64,000 nucleotides of DNA, taken from Candidatus Zambryskiibacteriota bacterium (GTDB lineage Bacteria; Patescibacteriota; Minisyncoccia; Phycocordibacterales; WO2-35-19). The DNA lies in the NCBI GenBank assembly GCA_043799105.1, contig JAZDOB010000010.1, forward strand, positions 10,516-74,515, in the 5' to 3' direction. The translations under genes were made by a program, and so were the position numbers. The number at the start of each line of letters is the position of its first letter. Position 1 is the first letter of the stretch. Below the pieces are notes generated by a model. That model searched no databases. It was not told the origin of the DNA and saw only the letters and a program-made list of their open reading frames with translations. This document shows positions 5,353 to 62,477 of the stretch, piece after piece.

Positions 5353-6374
5353 GAATTCTTATTACAACAGGTATATATCCGCCCAAAATAGGAGGTCCGG
5401 CACAGTATGCCAAGAACCTTAAGGACGCATTTGAAAAAATGGGCCATGTTGTGAACGTTAAGACTTATGGTATGGAAGATAGATTACCGACTGGCATAAG
5501 ACATTTATTTTTTTTCCTTAAGATAATTCCACAAATTGCAAAGAGTAACGCGGTTTTTATCTTAGACACTTTTAGCGTGGGATGGCCTGCAGTGTTGGCT
5601 TGCAAGATATTTGGCAAGAAGGGGATTATAAGAACCGGTGGGGATTTTCTTTGGGAGCAGTATGTAGAGAGAACAAAAAAGAAGATATTGTTTAGGGACT
5701 TTTATCAGACAAAAATGACAAGTTTTTCTATGAAGGAAAGAATCATATTTAAAATTACAAAATGGACTTTGAACAACACTTCAAAAATTATTTTTTCCAC
5801 TGAATGGCAAAGAGACATTTTTGTAAAAGCCTATGGTTTAAATGTGGCAGATACTTGTATTGTTGAAAATTATTACGGGCCGAAAGCCGCCTCCGCAGAG
5901 AGCTTCGGCGAGCCAGGGGAATCCAATAAAATATTTATCGGTTCGGCGCGCAATCTGGTTTGGAAAAATTTTAATGTATTGGAACGTGTTTTTGGTAAAA
6001 TAAAAACCAAGCATCCGAAAGTTGTCCTTTTTACAGACAGCCTGCCTTATCAGCAATTTATGGAAAAAATGAGCAAATCATACGCCGTTGTACTGGTTTC
6101 TTTGGGTGATATAAGTCCCAATATGATACTTGACGCCATAAGATTAAATAGACCTTTCATATGTACCAAAGAAGTGGGCATATTTGAGCGAATTAAAGAA
6201 GCGGGGATTTTTATCGATCCCTTAAACGAAAGAGAAATAGAAATGGCAATTTTAAATTTACTAACCGAGGAGGGATACAGGAGGGCTAAAGAAAAGGTGA
6301 GAAGCTTCAATTTCACGCATACCTGGAACGAAATTGCCTCGGAGTTTATTCGGACTTTAGATTCAACAGAATGA
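5349..6374 (+). CDS. Glycosyltransferase (GT4-like, divergent)
   Basis: N-terminus MRILITTGIYPPKIGGPAQYAKNL is typical of GT4 N-domains. Start overlaps previous stop (ATGA coupling). Confidence 0.55.
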   Translation: MRILITTGIYPPKIGGPAQYAKNLKDAFEKMGHVVNVKTYGMEDRLPTGIRHLFFFLKIIPQIAKSNAVFILDTFSVGWPAVLACKIFGKKGIIRTGGDFLWEQYVERTKKKILFRDFYQTKMTSFSMKERIIFKITKWTLNNTSKIIFSTEWQRDIFVKAYGLNVADTCIVENYYGPKAASAESFGEPGESNKIFIGSARNLVWKNFNVLERVFGKIKTKHPKVVLFTDSLPYQQFMEKMSKSYAVVLVSLGDISPNMILDAIRLNRPFICTKEVGIFERIKEAGIFIDPLNEREIEMAILNLLTEEGYRRAKEKVRSFNFTHTWNEIASEFIRTLDSTE

Positions 6375-50508: not shown

Positions 50509-50622
50509 AATAAAGGTTTCTTGAGCCTTATCCACAAATGGTTTGCACAAAATCGTAGAATATGCTATACTTATAAGGTGAGTGTGGTGAAGCAATTTCC
50601 ACACAAATGAATGTCTGCGAAA

Positions 50623-50652
50623 GCGCCACCTAACGGTGGCATTTTCGTTTTT
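50623..50652 (+). terminator. Intrinsic terminator downstream of O-antigen-ligase gene
   Basis: gcgccacc-taac-ggtggc followed by attttcgttttt. Confidence 0.55.
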
Positions 50653-50677
50653 CAAAAATTTTTGTATACTTAAATAT

Positions 50678-50763
50678 GTGTCGTGGCGTGACCGGCGGTT
50701 CGCACTCACATAGACATTTGTTTTGGAGATAGCTTCCGCCGGTCGCGCGACGACATTTGTTTT
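50678..50763 (+). ncRNA. Candidate structured RNA: 21-bp GC-rich stem (1 mismatch, 2 G·U) enclosing a 37-nt loop, U-tail
   Basis: gtgtcgtggcgtgaccggcgg…(37 nt)…ccgccggtcgcgcgacgacat then ttgtttt. It sits in a 590-bp non-coding gap upstream of secA. Confidence 0.35.
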
Positions 50764-51099
50764 AGAAATTATTTTTGATATTTTTTTTATAAATTTTTTC
50801 TGAAAATAAAAAAGTTATCCACATATTTTGTAAAAAATCATTTACTTAAAATTTTTTTAGAGCGATAATTAGAACAAGGTCGATCGTCGCGTGAGATTTC
50901 TGAAAGAAATTTTTTACGCGACAAGCGCGCTTAAAAATAATCTCATTCTAATCCCGATGTTCTTCGGGAAAGGAATCTCACTAGAATGGCAAAAAAGAAA
51001 AAAGCATCAAAGAAGAAAAGAGCATAACAGCTTTTTCCTGCTTAACAAAGATTCCGCCTCTCGGCGGAGTTTTTGTTTTTGTGATAATATAAGCCTATT

Positions 51100-53472
51100 A
51101 TGTCGTTTTTGAACAAAATATTTGGAGATCAAAATAAGCGGTATATAAAGGAAATAGAGCATTTAATTCCTCAAATAAACAGCTTTGAAGAGACTGTTTC
51201 TAAATTGTCTGACCAAGAATTAAAAAATAAAACAGTTGAATTCAAAGAAAGATTGGAAAAAGGAGAAACACTGGAAGATATTTTACCTGAAGCTTTTGCT
51301 TGCGTACGCGAAGCGGCCAGGAGGACTTTAAAGGAGAGGCATTTTGATGTGCAACTTTTAGGAGGCATTGTGATGCATCGCGGAGGTATTTCCGAGATGC
51401 GCACCGGAGAGGGCAAAACTTTAGTGGCTACTCTACCGGCGTATCTCAATGCTCTGGAGGGCGAAGGAGTACATGTAGTGACGGTCAATGATTATCTTTC
51501 GCGTCGTGATGCTGTTTGGATGGGAGAAATTTATGATGCACTGGGTCTTTCAGTTGGAGTGATCGCTCACGAATCTTCTTTTATATATAATCCGCAGATT
51601 GAAAACGAAGAACAGGACAAAGAGAGAGACGAAAAGGGTTCTTTCCATATTGTTCATGAATTTTTGAAGCCTTGTAGCCGAGTGGAAGCTTATGAAGCCG
51701 ATATCACTTATGGCACCAACAGCGAATTCGGTTTTGATTACCTGCGGGACAATCTGGAGTATAAATACGAAAATGTGAGGCAGAAGAGGCACCACTTTGC
51801 TATCGTGGATGAAATAGACTCAATCCTTATAGATGAAGCAAGGACGCCACTTATTATTTCTGCGCCGGCGGCTGATTCCGATATTTTATACAGAAAATTT
51901 GCGGGCGTGGCCGATAGACTTAAAGAAAACGAACATTATACGGTGGATGAAAAAATGCACGCAGTGCTCTTAACAGACGAAGGCATCAGTAAGGCGGAGG
52001 AAATTTTGGGTTTGGCAAACATCTATGCGGAAGGAGGTATAAAGCTGGTGCATCATTTGGAAACGGCGGCCAAAGCCAAGGCTTTGTATCGCAGAGATAA
52101 AGATTACGTGGTTAAAGATGACGAGGTGATTATCGTTGACCCTTATACCGGCCGGCTTCAGCCGGGCAGACGATGGTCGGAAGGTTTGCATCAAGCCATT
52201 GAAGCCAAAGAAAATGTCAGTGTCCAAAAAGAAAGTCGCACTTTTGCTTCCATCACTTACCAAAACTATTTCAGAATGTATGAAAAATTATCGGGTATGA
52301 CCGGCACCGCTGCCACTTCCAGCGAGGAATTTTATAAAGTTTACGGTTTGAATACGGTAACTATACCGACAAACAAGTCTTCTGCCAGAGCTGACAAAAA
52401 TGATCTTATTTTTCAGACCGAAAATGGCAAACTTTTAGCTATTGCCCGAAAAGTAAAAGAACTCCAAAAAAAGGGTCAGCCGGTGCTTATAGGCACCATC
52501 TCCATTGAGAAAAACGAGCTTTTGGGTGAATACTTAAAAAGAGAAGGGGTAAATTTTGAAATGTTAAATGCCAAAAATCACGAAAGAGAAGGGGAAATTA
52601 TAGCTCAAGCCGGTCGAGAGGGGGGAGTGACGGTGGCTACCAACATGGCCGGCCGTGGCGTGGACATAAAACTTGGCGGAGCGCCTTTTGAAAAATCGGC
52701 TTACGAGAAAGTTAAAAGTCTGAATGGCCTTTTTGTTTTGGGTACCGAGAGACATGACGCCAGGCGCATAGATAATCAGCTGAGAGGACGCTCGGGTCGA
52801 CAGGGTGACCCGGGAGAGACGCAATTTTTCGTATCCATGGAAGACCACATCATGAGAGTTTTTGCGGCAGATACCGTCAAAAATATGATGGGACGCCTCG
52901 GCATCCCCGAAGATGAGGCCATTGAAAATAAACTTATCACCAGATCTCTTGAAAGCGCTCAGGAAAAAATAGAGGGTCTCAATTTTGACGCCCGCAAACA
53001 TATTTTGGAATATGACGATGTTTTGAATTTTCAGAGAAAGACTTTTTATGAAAGGAGAAGAAAAATATTAACGGAAGAAATGGACGAAAAAGTACGCAGT
53101 CTAAAATTGCAGGTTTACGATATGTTTTGGGTTGACCATTTGGAAATGATGGATTATCTGCGCAATTCGGTCAACTTGCGCGCTTATGGTCAAAGAGATC
53201 CTTTGGTTGAATATAAAAAAGAGGGCTTGAAACTTTTCAAGGAAATGGAAGAGAATATTGAAAATACCATTGCTGAGAATCTGAAAAAATTGGCGGAGTT
53301 TGGAAATATTTCCAGCGAGCAAAAGGAAATAGAAAACCAAGCGCTCAAAATCACAGGTGTCACTGATACTTCAAACAACCCCGCTGTTTCTAACGAACAT
53401 AAAGATGTTGGCAGAAATGACCCATGCTGGTGTGGTTCGGGTTTGAAATATAAGAGGTGCCATGGAAAGTAA
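51100..53472 (+). CDS. secA: Preprotein translocase ATPase SecA
   Basis: …LLGGIVMHRGGISEMRTGEGKTLVATLPAYLNAL…; DEAD-like motor. C-terminal zinc-binding CWCGSGLKYKRCHG. Confidence 0.95.
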   Translation: MSFLNKIFGDQNKRYIKEIEHLIPQINSFEETVSKLSDQELKNKTVEFKERLEKGETLEDILPEAFACVREAARRTLKERHFDVQLLGGIVMHRGGISEMRTGEGKTLVATLPAYLNALEGEGVHVVTVNDYLSRRDAVWMGEIYDALGLSVGVIAHESSFIYNPQIENEEQDKERDEKGSFHIVHEFLKPCSRVEAYEADITYGTNSEFGFDYLRDNLEYKYENVRQKRHHFAIVDEIDSILIDEARTPLIISAPAADSDILYRKFAGVADRLKENEHYTVDEKMHAVLLTDEGISKAEEILGLANIYAEGGIKLVHHLETAAKAKALYRRDKDYVVKDDEVIIVDPYTGRLQPGRRWSEGLHQAIEAKENVSVQKESRTFASITYQNYFRMYEKLSGMTGTAATSSEEFYKVYGLNTVTIPTNKSSARADKNDLIFQTENGKLLAIARKVKELQKKGQPVLIGTISIEKNELLGEYLKREGVNFEMLNAKNHEREGEIIAQAGREGGVTVATNMAGRGVDIKLGGAPFEKSAYEKVKSLNGLFVLGTERHDARRIDNQLRGRSGRQGDPGETQFFVSMEDHIMRVFAADTVKNMMGRLGIPEDEAIENKLITRSLESAQEKIEGLNFDARKHILEYDDVLNFQRKTFYERRRKILTEEMDEKVRSLKLQVYDMFWVDHLEMMDYLRNSVNLRAYGQRDPLVEYKKEGLKLFKEMEENIENTIAENLKKLAEFGNISSEQKEIENQALKITGVTDTSNNPAVSNEHKDVGRNDPCWCGSGLKYKRCHGK

Positions 53473-57388: not shown

Positions 57389-59341
57389 ATGGCGCGATCA
57401 ATGGTTTTGGGGAACGGGAATACTTTGGTCTGTCTGGATAAGTTCGGACAGGTCAGGGATTTTTATTTTCCATATGTCGGACAGGAAAATCATATCGGTT
57501 CCAACCAACTGCACAAGATTGGAGTTTTTGTTGATGGCGAAACGCATTGGATAGATAATGGCGAATGGAATGTAGATATAAGATTTGAGAAAAGCACCAT
57601 GGTCTCCAAGATAGAAGCCACAAATGAAAAGGCCAAGATTTTTATGGTCTCGACCGATGTTGTTTATAATGAAAAGAATATTTTTTTGAGAAGAATCACA
57701 CTGACCAACAAGGATCACAGAGCGCGCGATATCAGGATATTTTTCAACCAGCAGTTTAAGATAGGGGATACCAACCATGCGGATACGGCATATTTTTCCA
57801 GCACTATTGAGTCCATCATTCATTACAAAGGCAGGAGAGTTTTTTTGGTTGGCGGTATGGGAGGAAACAACAAGCCGTTTGATGATTACAGCATAGGTTT
57901 TTGCGGAGCTGAGGGTAAAGAAGGCACCTGGAAAGATGCCGAGGATGGAGCTTTGTCTAAAAATTCCATTGAACACGGAGTGGTAGATTCGGTTATCGGC
58001 TGGCAGAGGAATATTCCGGCGGACGGTTCCATGACTTTATATTATTGGGTGATGGCTGGTGAGACTTACAAAGAAGTCTGTGAACTCCTTGAATATGTTT
58101 TTGAAAAGACACCCGAGCACCTAATTGAGTCCACTCAAGATTTTTGGAAAGCTTGGACGGGGCAAGTTGAGTTGTCTTTACCCGGACTGTCTGAAAGAGC
58201 CAAGAATTTGTTTTATGATTCTCTTTTGGTGATGAGGGCGCATTCTGATGACAGGGGGGGAATTTTGGCTTCGGCTGATTCTGGCAATGTGCAATATGGC
58301 GGGGATACTTATGGATACATTTGGCCCAGAGATGCCTGTTTTACGGCCTGGAGTTTTGATATGGCGGGGTTTTATGATGTTTCCAAGAGATTTTACGCTT
58401 TTGCCAACGATATTTTGACCGAGGAAGGTTATGTTTTGCACAAATACCAACCGGACCATTCTTTGGGGAGCTCGTGGCACCCCTGGGTCAAGGATGGGAA
58501 GAGACAGCTCGCTATACAAGAAGATGAGACGGCCGTTCTCCTTGTTGGACTTTGGGAGCATTATATAAGAGCCAAAGATCTGGAATTTATAGAAAGTATT
58601 TATAATAGTTTTATAAAGAAAGCGGCCGACTTCATGATTCATTACAAAGATATTCATTCGGGATTGCCCCTACCCAGTTATGATTTGTGGGAGGAACAAT
58701 TTGGAGTTTCGCCCTTTACTGCCTCTTTAGTCTATGGAGGTTTGATATCGGCTCACAATTTTGCTAAAACTTTGGGTAAAGAGGAGGATGCCAGCAGATT
58801 CTATGGGGAAGCGGAGACTTTGCGTAAGGCCATTATGGCTCTACTCTGGAATGAAGAAGGAAAATATTTTTTTAAACTAAACGGAGACAAATTAGAGAAA
58901 AATATCAATTTGGATGCCAGTAGTTTTTATGGGCCGTTTCGTTTTGGGGTGATATCCGCTGATGACCCGAGGATGAAAGAGGCATTTAAGATATTGAATG
59001 CCAAACTGAGCAGTGGTATAAGCATAGGGGGACTCGCGCGTTATGAAGGTGATAAATATTCTCACGTTGAAGGCGGGTCGGTTGGCAATCCGTGGTTTGT
59101 GACTACGTTGTGGTTCACTCAATATAAAATAGTGACGGCCAACTCTTTGGCGGAATTGGAGGAAGCGGCTAAAGATATAGAGTGGGTGGCAAAATTTGCA
59201 AGGTCAGGTATGCTTTCCGAACAACTCAACCCGTACACCGGCGAGCCTCTGTCAGCGACCCCTCTCACCTGGAGTCATGCCGAATACGTGCGTACTGTCA
59301 TAGAATATGATAAAAAGATTAAACAATGGCAAAAGATATAA
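57389..59341 (+). CDS. Glycoside hydrolase family 15-like (glucoamylase/glucodextranase, archaeal-type)
   Basis: N-terminal …LGNGNTLVCLDKFGQVRDFYFPYVG…, central …DTYGYIWPRDA… and C-terminal (α/α)6-barrel pattern. Confidence 0.75.
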   Translation: MARSMVLGNGNTLVCLDKFGQVRDFYFPYVGQENHIGSNQLHKIGVFVDGETHWIDNGEWNVDIRFEKSTMVSKIEATNEKAKIFMVSTDVVYNEKNIFLRRITLTNKDHRARDIRIFFNQQFKIGDTNHADTAYFSSTIESIIHYKGRRVFLVGGMGGNNKPFDDYSIGFCGAEGKEGTWKDAEDGALSKNSIEHGVVDSVIGWQRNIPADGSMTLYYWVMAGETYKEVCELLEYVFEKTPEHLIESTQDFWKAWTGQVELSLPGLSERAKNLFYDSLLVMRAHSDDRGGILASADSGNVQYGGDTYGYIWPRDACFTAWSFDMAGFYDVSKRFYAFANDILTEEGYVLHKYQPDHSLGSSWHPWVKDGKRQLAIQEDETAVLLVGLWEHYIRAKDLEFIESIYNSFIKKAADFMIHYKDIHSGLPLPSYDLWEEQFGVSPFTASLVYGGLISAHNFAKTLGKEEDASRFYGEAETLRKAIMALLWNEEGKYFFKLNGDKLEKNINLDASSFYGPFRFGVISADDPRMKEAFKILNAKLSSGISIGGLARYEGDKYSHVEGGSVGNPWFVTTLWFTQYKIVTANSLAELEEAAKDIEWVAKFARSGMLSEQLNPYTGEPLSATPLTWSHAEYVRTVIEYDKKIKQWQKI

Positions 59342-60741
59342 GTTGGAAAACAACCATAGGCCTAGAAATACATGCGGAGCTCAAAACAAAAACAAAGATG
59401 TTTTGTTCGTGCAAAAATGACACGGATGAAAAAAGGCCCAATGTAAATATTTGCCCTATTTGTATGGGGCACCCCGGCACGCTACCCGTCATAAACAAAG
59501 AGGCCGTGAAGAATGTCCTAAAAGTCGGGCTTGCGCTGGGGGGAAAACTGGCTGATTTTACAGAATTTGACCGCAAAAATTATTTTTACCCGGATATTCC
59601 GAAGGGTTATCAGATTAGCCAATACAAACATCCTCTGGTTTCGGGAGGAGAGCTTTTGGGAGTAAAAATAACGAGGGTTCACTTGGAAGAAGATACGGCG
59701 CGTTCGAGCCACGGAATGGGGGACACAGATGATTCGTCCCTTCTTGATTTCAACAGGGCCGGAGTGCCGCTTATGGAGCTTGTGACGGAGCCGGTAATAC
59801 ATTCGTCCGAAGAAGTCGTCAAGTTTGGCGAAGAATTGCAGTTGCTTTTGCAGTATCTGGGGGTGGCGGAGGCCAATATGGAAAAAGGGGAAATGAGGCT
59901 TGAGGCCAATATCTCAGTCAGCAATACCGATAAACTGGGCACAAAAGTAGAAATTAAAAACCTTAACTCCTTCCGGTCGGCGGAAAAAGCCATAGAGTTT
60001 GAAATAAAGAGGCAAATAGAAGCTCTAAAAAACGGCGAAAAAATAAGCCAAGAGACCAGAGGTTGGGACGACAAGAAGCAGGTTACCTTTTCTCAGAGGT
60101 CCAAAGAAGACTCGCACGACTACAGATACTTCCCTGATCCCGACTTGCCAAAACTTAAATTAAGCGAGACAGCCGAGTTTGACGAAAAAACATTGCGTAC
60201 CCAAATACACGAAACTCCTAAAGAAAAAAGGGAGAGATTAAAGAAAGATTACAATATAAAAGAGAGCGATATTGATTTTTATATTTCAAATATTAAACTG
60301 GGCTCTCTGTTTGAAAAAGCTTCACTCGGCCTCAGCCCCAGAGATTTTCAACTGCTCTCAAACTACATAGTGAGCGACATTGCCAGTTTGGGGGAGAGAG
60401 GGTTTTCCATAAATCCAGAGAATCTCTCGTCCCTGATTTCTATGTTTATAAAAGGGGAGGTGTCTTCACGGGGGGCGAAGGATATTCTTTCCAAAATGGC
60501 GGAGAGTGATAGGAACCCAAAAACAATAGCAGAAGAAGAAGGGCTGTTCCAAAAAAGCGATGAGGAAGAACTTGAAAAAGTTGCAAATAAAATAATATCC
60601 GAAAACACAGAAGCTGTTTTAGAGTATAAAAACGGCAAAGTTTCAGCTCTGCAATTTCTGGTTGGGCAGGGTATGAAGGCTACCGGAGGCTCGGCCAATC
60701 CTCAAATATTGAAGGCTATTTTTGAGAAACTTATCGGCTAA
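59326..60741 (+). CDS. gatB: Asp-tRNA(Asn)/Glu-tRNA(Gln) amidotransferase subunit B
   Basis: MAKDISWKTTIGLEIHAELKTKTKMFCSC… canonical GatB N-terminus; …YFPDPDLP…. Confidence 0.95.
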   Translation: MAKDISWKTTIGLEIHAELKTKTKMFCSCKNDTDEKRPNVNICPICMGHPGTLPVINKEAVKNVLKVGLALGGKLADFTEFDRKNYFYPDIPKGYQISQYKHPLVSGGELLGVKITRVHLEEDTARSSHGMGDTDDSSLLDFNRAGVPLMELVTEPVIHSSEEVVKFGEELQLLLQYLGVAEANMEKGEMRLEANISVSNTDKLGTKVEIKNLNSFRSAEKAIEFEIKRQIEALKNGEKISQETRGWDDKKQVTFSQRSKEDSHDYRYFPDPDLPKLKLSETAEFDEKTLRTQIHETPKEKRERLKKDYNIKESDIDFYISNIKLGSLFEKASLGLSPRDFQLLSNYIVSDIASLGERGFSINPENLSSLISMFIKGEVSSRGAKDILSKMAESDRNPKTIAEEEGLFQKSDEEELEKVANKIISENTEAVLEYKNGKVSALQFLVGQGMKATGGSANPQILKAIFEKLIG

Positions 60742-60745
60742 AGGG

Positions 60746-61393
60746 TTACAGGAGGGGTTCTTTCGCTGTACTGGTAGACACAAAATCCCTATATTTTGCC
60801 TGGTCTTTAAACTGTCTTAATACAATATCGGTAGAGATCAAATCGCCCCACCTGTTTAGACCTATGTAGTCCTGGTAGCTCGACCAGGGGTACTTGTCGT
60901 AGGTGTCTCCCCAGGCGCCGATCTCTTTCGGATTTTTGTGTATGTATGCTGATAAGTGCAAAAGCTGATTGTTGTTTTTAACATGTACCGCTCCGAACGG
61001 CCCGTGAAATACGTGACCCTTTTTGTTGTACTTGGCATTGAAATATTTACTGTAGGCGGTAAGTACTCGGTGCATATAAACGGAAAGAATACCGTCTTCC
61101 AAGTTTTGTATCAAAATATGGAAATGGTTGGGCATGAGGGCAAAGGCAACCAATTCAACATTTCTCTTTTTGAGCATGTCATCAATCTTATCTTTCTTTG
61201 TGCTGAATGAGTTTTTTTCAAGGAAGCTTTTGGTGTACCAAGATATGTTGTATATCCGGGTGGGGGATTGGAAATGGGTAATAAGAAATATAAATCTGGC
61301 GCGATCTTTATCGTCTAAAAATATTTTTTCTTTATTAACGCCTCTGCCGAAGAGATGATAATATTCTTTTTCTGCAAAATTTTCGTATCTCAT
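60746..61393 (-). CDS. HuH-Y1 transposase-like protein (IS200/IS605 TnpA / REP-associated tyrosine transposase, RAYT-like)
   Basis: HuH motif …MPNHFHILIQN… plus downstream Tyr-containing region (…VLTAYSKYFNAKY…). Convergent with and abutting gatB. Confidence 0.55.
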   Translation of the reverse strand: MRYENFAEKEYYHLFGRGVNKEKIFLDDKDRARFIFLITHFQSPTRIYNISWYTKSFLEKNSFSTKKDKIDDMLKKRNVELVAFALMPNHFHILIQNLEDGILSVYMHRVLTAYSKYFNAKYNKKGHVFHGPFGAVHVKNNNQLLHLSAYIHKNPKEIGAWGDTYDKYPWSSYQDYIGLNRWGDLISTDIVLRQFKDQAKYRDFVSTSTAKEPLL

Positions 61394-61461
61394 GATGTTT
61401 TTGGTATGGCAGTAGTATAGCAGGAGCTCAAAAGTGCCACTATTGGGTGTGTGGATAACTA

Positions 61462-61501
61462 CTAAACGCTCAGCGTCTAATATTAGACGCTGAGCGTTTA
61501 G
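61462..61501. repeat. Perfect 40-nt palindrome (20+20) upstream of the transposase-like gene
   Basis: ctaaacgctcagcgtctaat|attagacgctgagcgtttag is exactly self-complementary. Confidence 0.85.
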
Positions 61502-61556
61502 TATAGATTTTGGAGTGGGCGTATGGTGTAGTATGGAGATCTTTGGGGGTTGATTA

Positions 61557-61612
61557 AGGTCGAATTTTGGCTGGGTCGGGGTTAATTTTGGTCAGGTCGG
61601 AGTTTTATTAGG
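61557..61612. repeat. Three degenerate tandem ~19-21-bp repeats (RGGTCGRRGTTWATTTTGG)
   Basis: aggtcgaattttgg / gggtcggggttaattttgg / aggtcggagttttattagg in direct succession. Confidence 0.45.
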
Positions 61613-61836
61613 ATCGAACTGAGGAGGGGGTCAGACAAAGCTGGGGCGGGGGAGCCTGATTTAAGTTATTCCAATTTGATTTTAATATTTGAGACGAGAC
61701 CGGGTAAATAATAAAGTATAAAATAAGGATATAAAATTAGAATGAATAAAAAAATAATCACCATTAGGGTGATTATTTTGATTTGACTGGTTTTGTTGAA
61801 ATGGGGTATATATATGAGCAAGATCTATAATTTTGT

Positions 61837-62136
61837 TTATGATTTTTCCTCAATATCCGGGTTTCGTTCATTTATATTAACATCTCCCGAGGCGTGCTCT
61901 TCTTCCAGATGGCGGACGGCCAGTTTGCGAATCTCATCTTTTTTCTTTTTTACAATGAAAATATTACTCTCAATCATTTCTATGACTTTGTCAATGTCTT
62001 CTATTTTATAGACCCTATAGTTATTGAAGGGATGGCGGTGAGCTTTGAGCTTACCGGACTTGTCCCAATTTCTCAGAGTGATCTTGGACATACCTAATAT
62101 TTTAGCGGCGTCTTTGATTGTTATGTATGTGTTCAT
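61837..62136 (-). CDS. MerR-family HTH transcriptional regulator (small)
   Basis: ITIKDAAKILGMSKITLRNWDKSGKLKAHRHPFNNYRVYKIEDIDKV: MerR N-terminal HTH pattern. Confidence 0.55.
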   Translation of the reverse strand: MNTYITIKDAAKILGMSKITLRNWDKSGKLKAHRHPFNNYRVYKIEDIDKVIEMIESNIFIVKKKKDEIRKLAVRHLEEEHASGDVNINERNPDIEEKS

Positions 62137-62477
62137 TTTATTGGTTATTTTATTGTTTATTACTGAAAATTAAACACTACCAAACCTATATAAACATTAT
62201 TATATCACTATGTATGAATATAAAAGTTTAATAATGTGGATAACTCGCTGTACATAATTTTTTTAACACATTATAATAATTATAGTATTTTGATTAATTT
62301 TGAGTGCAATTATTGGTTTGGACGGTATTTGGGGGTCTTATAAAGATAAAACAACAATCAAACAAAGCAGACCGGAATGAGATAAAAATATATTAAAAAA
62401 GTTTAGAAAAAAATAAAAATTTCGATACTAAAAAATTAAATTTTTTATATTGATTTATCCCCAACTTTTTTATTCAT

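Follow-up and report, generated by a model that had tools for sequence, protein, structure and literature searches.

What keeps a transposase-like gene at a fixed chromosomal place, right beside a perfect palindrome, and do the gene and the palindrome belong together? We address this question in a stretch of 64,000 nucleotides (nt) from Candidatus Zambryskiibacteriota bacterium (assembly GCA_043799105.1, contig JAZDOB010000010.1, positions 10,516 to 74,515; hereafter the window), where a minus-strand open reading frame (ORF) of 215 amino acids (aa) encodes a Y1/HUH protein, here called Y1, and a 44-nt palindrome lies upstream of it. An initial annotation had offered two accounts of the locus, as a domesticated REP-associated tyrosine transposase (RAYT; REP, repetitive extragenic palindrome) with its cognate hairpin, or as the edge of an integrated element. 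Our analysis favors the former. We give a probability of about 0.62 to a domesticated, RAYT-like Y1/HUH enzyme with a cognate hairpin that is REPIN-like, a REPIN being a REP doublet that forms a hairpin (PMC5581495), and the hairpin probably doubles as a promoter-proximal or terminator element. The support comes from a Pfam match to PF01797, a fold match to TnpA-REP, fixed synteny, the conservation and covariation of the palindrome, its decay where catalytic residues are lost, and related units at distant homologues. The two elements at issue are as follows.

60746-61393, minus strand: Y1/HUH gene (RAYT-like, TnpA-Y1 class 2), 215 aa, identified from its ORF and PF01797
61460-61503, no strand: perfect palindrome of 44 nt, with 22-nt arms and no spacer

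The family assignment of Y1 is carried by its sequence motifs and its predicted fold. The Pfam hidden Markov model Y1_Tnp (PF01797), which the initial annotation had proposed as a check, matched the protein at 40.7 bits against a cutoff of 23 (E = 3e-10) and also matched 84 of 85 Y1 homologues. The 215-aa minus-strand frame and its HuH motif were correctly called: N89-H90-F91-H92 lies within MPNHFHILIQ, the single catalytic Tyr150 lies on the following helix of the HUH fold within SAYIHKNP (a motif of the Y---NP type, with N154 present in 68 and P155 in 77 of the 85 homologues), and the C-terminus carries a 'YPWSSY' tail. An AlphaFold2 model built from the 85 homologues reached a mean pLDDT of 91.3 and a pTM of 0.89. 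A fold search was needed because the sequence-profile search of the PDB gave marginal matches only (E about 0.5); its top match was 4er8_A, the E. coli TnpA-REP with a REP hairpin (E = 3.3e-5, target TM 0.66), followed by the IS608 and ISDra2 TnpA proteins (2vjv, 2xm3). Homologues of Y1 number about 1,370, nearly all of them in Patescibacteria, and among the matches listed most are known from a single contig each. The protein is 100% identical to that of a Candidatus Zambryskibacteria metagenome-assembled genome, and an exact-sequence look-up of the window's Y1 protein returned no record.

The position of the gene is also informative. It lies between two neighbors whose order recurs across species.

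59326-60741, plus strand: gatB, convergent to Y1, with Pfam domains GatB_N and GatB_Yqey
61837-62136, minus strand: MerR/excisionase-type helix-turn-helix (HTH) gene, 99 aa, with Pfam domains MerR and HTH_17

A single scan of GTDB species genomes yielded 80 loci (L001-L080). The first fifteen of these, L001-L015, come from different GTDB species, in which Y1 is 62-84% identical to the protein of the window, and they have the order MerR-type HTH gene, Y1 and convergent gatB (the contig of L011 ends short of the MerR-like gene), with GH15 and GH57 genes next wherever the contig extends to them. A more divergent locus, L074 (Y1 49% identical), reads MerR, Y1, gatB and GH15. The same order is found in at least 21 metagenome loci, allowing for short contigs, and in six of the seven fetched loci with a catalytically dead enzyme (L201-L206; the contig of the seventh, L207, is too short for the MerR-like gene, and its downstream ORF has no Pfam record). 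The comparison with relatives that the initial annotation had called for thus finds the locus present, with the same position and neighbors, in more than 40 related loci in many species. The MerR-like gene is always upstream of Y1 in the window's clade, and the large ORF past it (62509 onwards) is syntenic in relatives too. With synteny on both sides, the locus is neither an insertion nor a transposon end, and it does not mark the core/accessory boundary that had been proposed here; the proposed edge of an integrated element finds neither a second end nor a second copy. Y1 is single-copy in the window, and genomes with two Y1 matches carry paralogues about 50% identical rather than duplicates. 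By these comparisons, the Y1 gene of the window's clade is vertically inherited and immobile ('domesticated'), with the single-copy, housekeeping-like distribution of a RAYT, and the window's locus is, to judge by its residues, a catalytically intact RAYT-like gene at a fixed place.

The palindrome starts 66 nt beyond the Y1 ATG and is the only long perfect palindrome in the window. It had been described as a 40-mer at 61462-61501; its perfection holds, and its length is greater, the 40-mer being the inner part of the 44 nt. No shuffle produced a match in a chance test, and the folding energy of its single DNA strand is -23 kcal/mol (z = -12.4). When we searched for a second copy of an arm or of the 17-nt core, allowing up to 3 mismatches, none appeared elsewhere in the window, and so the window holds no second palindrome that could flank a mobile unit. 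Internally, the 44-mer is made of two REP-like units of 23 nt, each imperfect by itself, which are in inverted orientation and share 2 nt; they read TACTAAACGCT-C-AGCGTCTAATA and TATTAGACGCT-G-AGCGTTTAGTA, a layout that resembles a REPIN doublet.

61460-61482: unit 1, centered on C61471
61481-61503: unit 2, centered on G61492

Between the MerR-like gene and Y1, the intergenic regions of orthologous loci are 440-700 nt long and unalignable except for one block, which in sense orientation contains AAAATCTA, the 44-mer, GTTATCCACA, about 30 variable nt, the -10 layout TGnTATAMT, about 10-20 nt and the ATG. The portion AAAATCTA plus 44-mer plus GTTATCCACA is near-identical while the Y1 proteins are 62-84% identical, and the 44-mer itself is base-for-base identical in most orthologous loci with Y1 proteins 74-84% identical. 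Where it does change, its symmetry is restored: the 44-mer of L005 has one change, which is compensated, and that of L015 has five, all compensated, resulting in perfect 24-nt arms. Across 18 distinct 44-mers, 12 pairs have changed on both sides; shuffled sets give 5.3, and none of 500 gives as many as 12. Strong selection therefore acts on the palindrome. Because the long inverted repeat of L015 is perfect and its single-unit hairpins are poor, the long palindrome is what selection preserves in the window's clade. Rfam searches returned chance microRNA-hairpin matches only, far under thresholds, for the palindrome region at E <= 1, and no match for the whole window at gathering thresholds. 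Beyond the palindrome, the initial annotation had seen three iteron-like direct repeats of about 20 bp (61557-61612); a repeat is present and weak (2.0 copies of a 21-nt unit at 80% identity in Tandem Repeats Finder, 61563-61604, score 56), and since it is unalignable in orthologues the iteron reading is not upheld.

The state of the palindrome is linked to the state of the enzyme. One or more of H90, H92 and Y150 have been lost in 17 of the 85 homologues (about 20%), all of which are still full-length ORFs; this dead-enzyme set comprises homologues within P0082-P0118 and loci L013, L074 and L201-L207. Those dead orthologues that could be placed occupy the same syntenic MerR, Y1 and gatB locus. 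We compared the complementarity of the palindrome in the two groups.

H-H-Y intact, non-redundant: 26 loci, 18-22 of 22 positions complementary, mean 21.5
HuH or Tyr mutated: 9 loci, 12-20 of 22 positions complementary, mean 16.7

The difference is marked (Mann-Whitney p = 2.6e-6, with no phylogenetic correction), the palindrome has decayed in 9 of 9 dead-enzyme loci, and the dead lineages form at least 3 separate groups on a neighbor-joining tree. That full-length ORFs persist in these lineages points either to a function kept without catalysis or to gradual decay.

The pairing of gene and hairpin recurs well outside the window's clade. At 64 further genome loci, from other Paceibacteria and in other genomic contexts, Y1 homologues 47-56% identical to the window's retain H-H-Y in every case (64/64). 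The MerR-like neighbor is absent beside these genes, whose neighbors form small syntenic groups only, with about half of them unique, and palindromic units are still present. A position-weight scan defined the distant unit as 23 nt with the consensus TGTYRAACAC-NNN-GTGTTYRACA and located it at three fixed places.

Upstream unit: 10-50 nt before the ATG, in 59 of 64 distant loci
Internal unit: in the coding sequence (CDS), centered on nt +181, in frame and encoding approximately F-V-K-H-S-V-F-N-I, in 53 of 64
Downstream unit: just past the stop codon, in 59 of 64

The complete set of three is found in 51 of the 64 loci. The internal unit falls at about aa 57-64, at one fixed site N-terminal to the HuH motif. 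Identity between units is 93.8% inside a locus and drops to 71.1% across loci, a contrast which indicates that the units of a distant locus evolve in concert, the encoded peptide included. Their stems covary as well: in 74 upstream units, 81.7% of cells are paired versus 70.8%, and double-change cells number 148 versus 66.5 in shuffles; neither value was attained in any of 500 shuffles. Most stem positions exchange their base pairs freely, which favors a base-paired hairpin over fixed protein-base contacts; a recurrent mismatch is found at stem position 8/22 of the 23-nt units. The unit feet are TGT.../...ACA in distant loci and TAY.../...RTA in the window's clade. Altogether, gene plus hairpin is a trait of the whole family across Paceibacteria.

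The distant upstream unit abuts a TATAAT -10 box in 24 loci and supplies the -35 hexamer in 17 loci; because it overlaps the -35 and -10 elements, it lies in the core promoter and not in the mRNA. An RNA element of the 5' untranslated region is accordingly unlikely, with the distant upstream unit outside the mRNA and no Rfam match. The central triplet of the units is CGA or TCG, in both orientations at all three unit positions and unrelated to the distance from the ATG, and no strand assignment could be obtained from loop orientation.

Some distant loci carry additional symmetric or repeated sequence. Long perfect inverted doublets are present in L018 (48 nt), L030 (27-nt arms) and L039 (36 nt), independent of the window's clade, which hints at a recurrent mechanism that generates or homogenizes inverted doublets. 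Just upstream of the palindrome there are extra direct copies of a half-site, namely four of TTGTCAAACAC in L036 (about 5890-5960) and three of TTGTTAAACAC in L079, and extra left half-sites are likewise upstream in L073, L064, L076, L068, L044 and L046, in an iteron-like arrangement.

Units are also found away from Y1. A metagenome scan with TAAACGCTSAGCGTYTA returned at least 120 loci, of which at least 21 have the doublet linked to Y1; among the matches listed, every doublet is Y1-linked. In at least 38 loci without Y1 inside the locus, there are single units with the extended consensus ATAYTAAACGCTSAGCGTYTARTA. Of the 99 listed matches without a Y1 gene, about 60 do not have this consensus either and probably match the 17-mer by chance. 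The single units are intergenic in 37 of 40 cases (38 loci) among the matches listed, and most of these dispersed copies lie 7-36 nt past the stop codons of housekeeping genes (Pif1-like helicase, TruB, Mur ligase, DivIC, TrxB-like), often between convergent genes and flanked on either side by A- and T-tracts; in a few cases TTATCCACA comes next, upstream of a 95-aa ORF. This dispersal has the look of a REP pattern at low copy number. The REP/BIME-like distribution (BIME, bacterial interspersed mosaic element) that the initial annotation had envisaged is absent in the window, and what exists are low-copy dispersed single units in related metagenome contigs. Two contigs from the same sample, L149 with a Y1-linked doublet (coverage 54) and L086 with a single unit (coverage 52), suggest by their coverage that they share one genome.

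A placement shared among contigs can be described for one of these groups. In L113, L128, L152, L163 and L195, a single unit lies 22-49 nt past the stop of a 545-554-aa ORF, which in L113 is a Pif1-like helicase (PIF1 + HTH_40) and in the other four is matched only by its length and position. Some of the dispersed copies, at least, thus apparently occupy conserved positions.

We turn to the sequence features around the palindrome, since they determine what else the element might do.

61414-61422, minus strand: putative extended -10 box of Y1, sense TGCTATACT, 20 nt before the ATG, called from the consensus only
61450-61458, minus strand: TTATCCACA, a DnaA-box-like 9-mer that abuts the palindrome, 30 nt upstream of the -10 box
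61504-61511, plus strand: TAGATTTT tract (sense-strand AAAATCTA), directly after the hairpin
61751-61779: terminator-like hairpin of the MerR-like gene, from a terminator scan
62235-62243, minus strand: TTATCCACA box in the promoter of the MerR-like gene, which reads TTATCCACA-N30-TGATATAAT
50528-50536 and 50815-50823, both plus strand: further TTATCCACA sites

The Y1 -10 box is also present in L201-L207. In relatives it is TGTTATAAT, 9-11 nt before the ATG; at that distance the predicted mRNA would be leaderless or nearly so. The TTATCCACA box upstream of Y1 is conserved in all orthologous loci, dead-enzyme ones included. It occurs 4 times in the window where 0.51 are expected, and three of the sites (61450, 62235 and 50528) are followed, after 29-30 nt, by an extended -10 box (TGCTATACT, TGATATAAT and TGCTATACT; layout TGnTATAMT), in sense orientation to the downstream gene or transcript. 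The box could be a regulator's site that typically accompanies promoters in these genomes, the regulator being DnaA or some other factor. We considered whether a DnaA-domain-IV-like tail of Y1 reads this box and rejected the idea, which lacks Pfam support in any of the 85 members: no Bac_DnaA_C (or HTH_23/HTH_28-like) C-terminal domain was found in them at E <= 0.1. On the plus strand, antisense to Y1, the hairpin and TAGATTTT match the pattern of an intrinsic terminator for transcription from the gatB side, and the TAGATTTT/AAAATCTA tract is conserved in orthologous loci. The stop codons of gatB and Y1 are convergent, as had been noted, and are 4 nt apart rather than 5; in relatives (L001-L015, L201-L206) the two genes range from a 4-nt overlap to a gap of about 20 nt. 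With so small a gap, no terminator fits between the two genes, and consequently transcription of either gene has to continue, antisense, into its neighbor. Dead-enzyme lineages retain the AAAATCTA tract, the TTATCCACA box and the -10 box, which indicates that these are promoter or terminator features in their own right.

Around another TTATCCACA site, at about 50566-50655 on the plus strand, a promoter-like TTATCCACA-N29-TGCTATACT arrangement is followed, about 50 nt past the predicted start, by a hairpin and T-run that, read by eye, is terminator-like (GCGCCACC-TAAC-GGTGGC-ATTTTCGTTTTT); a small RNA of roughly 75 nt, absent from the annotation, could be encoded here. The sequence at 50681-50757 (plus strand) contains a long inverted repeat rich in GC, GTCGTGGCGTGACCGGCGG ... 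CCGCCGGTCGCGCGACGAC. It stands out from AT-rich surroundings, within the 590-nt intergenic region before a 790-aa ORF at 51100, and has no Rfam match.

How does this pair compare to known systems? The closest likeness is to the RAYT, TnpA-REP or REPtron systems (PDB 4ER8; PMC5581495, PMC6006769, PMC8266576): a single-copy, vertically inherited Y1/HUH gene with a Y---NP motif, TnpA-REP as its top fold match, a co-evolving palindrome of its own at the gene in the form of a REPIN-like inverted doublet, and dispersed intergenic copies just past genes in related genomes. The tyrosine motif of Y1, YIHKNP, agrees with the Y---NP of TnpA-Y1 class 2, as opposed to the Y---Q of IS200 (Quentin et al. 2018, PMC6006769). 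Within class 2, the family signature (NHFH, F[EQH], YIHKNP and an SS tail) appears closest to subclass 2.1 (group 1 of Bertels, 'TIRYT') when compared by published description, in which proteins about 215-240 aa long carry NH[YF]H ... F[Q] ... Y[IV]HxNP ... SS tail; unlike subclass 2.1, which reportedly lacks REP-like sequences and has a C-terminal HTH like Bac_DnaA_C (PMC6006769), the window's family has cognate palindromes and lacks that domain in all 85 members. In-frame REP copies inside a tnpA-REP gene have been described only for subclass 2.4, between the HuH and Tyr motifs (PMC6006769). The distant Paceibacteria homologues share the presence of a unit inside the CDS and differ in that it precedes the HuH motif, at one fixed site. 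A literature search for RAYT together with Patescibacteria or the Candidate Phyla Radiation (CPR) found no paper linking the two.

Two further comparisons concern HUH enzymes in general. The IS200/IS605 TnpA proteins (IS608, ISDra2, IS200) share the HUH/Y1 fold and act at imperfect palindromes, to which the 23-nt units are similar. An IS200 left-end hairpin upstream of its gene can block incoming transcription, and the window's hairpin, upstream of Y1, could do likewise. The differences are that Y1 is not mobile, has no right end in its clade and no tnpB partner, and shows neither multiple near-identical copies at variable sites nor hairpins at both ends; moreover, IS200 TnpA is about 150 aa long and Y1 is about 65 residues longer. 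In rolling-circle Rep origins, such as those of geminiviruses and pT181-type plasmids, a hairpin and iterons overlap the rep promoter and Rep represses itself. The window resembles them in having an HUH enzyme gene with its own predicted hairpin target in the promoter region, as do some distant loci in their iteron-like extra half-sites upstream (four in L036, three in L079). It differs in being chromosomal and syntenic with no sign of a replicon, and Y1 has a transposase-type fold, not a Rep fold.

By analogy to TnpA-REP and IS608 TnpA, a working cycle can be proposed in which the palindrome folds into a hairpin when the region becomes single-stranded or when a cruciform is extruded. The Y1 protein would then bind the hairpin, as its relatives do, and would nick and rejoin the DNA using its HuH metal site and Tyr150 (PMC8266576, PMC6006769). 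Occupancy or extrusion at the promoter may feed back on Y1 transcription, an autoregulation, and on the plus strand the hairpin with TAGATTTT may stop gatB-operon transcripts that run antisense through Y1. These roles in cis are probable because the element is located just upstream of the Y1 promoter (TTATCCACA box, 30 nt, extended -10), and a terminator or regulatory role beside the cognate-hairpin role is likely. A stronger proposal is that catalysis by the adjacent Y1 actively maintains the symmetry of the palindrome, e.g. by hairpin-templated nicking and rejoining or by conversion between arms. Gene and palindrome would then maintain themselves as a pair, as a REPtron of which a streamlined CPR genome keeps just the home copy; in the sister clade, the cognate hairpin lies in the enzyme's own CDS. 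We put this forward tentatively and consider it rather unlikely. If it is true, the sister-clade enzyme recognizes, and perhaps cuts, its own single-stranded gene, creating a feedback.

Several observations weigh against reading Y1 and its palindrome as a RAYT with a cognate REPIN-like hairpin. Every step of the mechanism above is an analogy. Y1 scores 42 bits with the NCBIfam RAYT equivalog NF047646 (REP_Tyr_transpos), under its cutoff of 80. The conserved 5' GT[AG]G foot of REP elements was not found in the window's clade; a GTAG arises at one palindrome end, from '...AGTA|G', and is not conserved (variants TAATAG, TAGTAT and TAGTAC). The clade has the upstream doublet only, with no unit on the 3' side of Y1 and none inside the CDS, so that the gene is flanked by its cognate element on the 5' side alone; unlike a REPIN, this doublet has zero spacer and is a perfect palindrome; and unlike known REP sequences, it is located in its own gene's promoter region beside a DnaA-box-like motif, in a streamlined Patescibacteria host. 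A high-copy REP population was not seen, with 1 copy in the 64-kb window and no other unit in about 170 kb of relatives' flanks, and the L149 and L086 pair is the only hint that dispersed units share genomes with Y1. Divergence confounds the association of enzyme death with palindrome decay, as the dead lineages are more divergent, and their outer arms keep compensated changes, indicating that something besides catalysis also constrains the symmetry. Finally, dyad symmetry, a position before the promoter and an adjacent TTATCCACA equally suit a double-stranded operator for a dimeric regulator.

That operator is one alternative. It would be bound by a dimeric factor (MerR-like, DnaA or other) and be unrelated to Y1 catalysis, Y1 being one member of a regulon. 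A perfect dyad just upstream of a conserved promoter speaks for it, as do the fixed 29-30 nt between TTATCCACA and the extended -10 at three window sites, a MerR-like gene as constant neighbor in the clade, compensated outer arms in dead lineages, and those dispersed units that are followed by TTATCCACA upstream of the 95-aa ORF. We nevertheless consider it improbable. Distant homologues have units without any MerR-like neighbor; units also occur inside the Y1 CDS and past its stop, in concert with the upstream unit; base pairs covary freely at most stem positions; most dispersed copies follow stop codons instead of occupying promoters; and the inner half of the palindrome decays once HuH or Tyr is lost. 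Similarly, the element may be an ordinary intrinsic terminator or insulator, ending gatB-operon read-through on the plus strand or blocking read-through into Y1, that belongs to a reused hairpin family and is near Y1 incidentally. The terminator-like match on the plus strand, the conserved T-tract (sense-strand AAAATCTA), the lack of room between convergent gatB and Y1, and the dispersed units 7-36 nt past stops, with A- or T-tract flanks and often between convergent genes, all suit it. Base-for-base identity is unusual for a terminator when the neighboring proteins are only 74-84% identical, and a three-unit layout with concerted evolution at distant Y1 homologues is unexpected for generic terminators; in addition, the distant upstream unit overlaps the Y1 promoter -35 and -10, and decay tracks the loss of catalytic residues. 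A terminator role is compatible with a cognate hairpin, and a terminator and nothing else is unlikely.

The mobile alternative is an active or recent insertion sequence of the IS200/IS605 type, or the edge of an integrated element, with the palindrome as its left-end hairpin. The Y1 transposase fold, a hairpin upstream of the gene as at an IS200 left end, and hairpins on both sides of the gene in distant homologues would fit. This alternative can hardly be sustained when the same site and neighbors recur in more than 40 loci in many species with both flanks syntenic, when the window has a single copy, and when a right end is impossible in the 4 nt before gatB. The length of Y1 (215 aa versus about 150 aa) also departs from that of IS200 TnpA, as does its tyrosine motif, Y---NP and not Y---Q (PMC6006769). 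We retain the domesticated RAYT-like enzyme with its cognate hairpin as the preferred reading.

For the host function of RAYTs, and for their persistence in single copy, the window's system offers a minimal, comparative handle. Patescibacteria genomes are streamlined, and the host genome is expected to be small. The system has few components, with one enzyme gene at a fixed locus and one 44-bp target in its own promoter region, the only copy seen. Natural dead orthologues with a decayed target provide a comparative series, and the wider series of intact and dead enzymes, of doublets and single units, and of three-unit relatives with a unit in the CDS could help to separate catalytic from regulatory roles. 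The palindrome and its units are defined substrates for binding and cleavage assays. If the pairing holds, it would extend REP/RAYT-type systems to the Patescibacteria.

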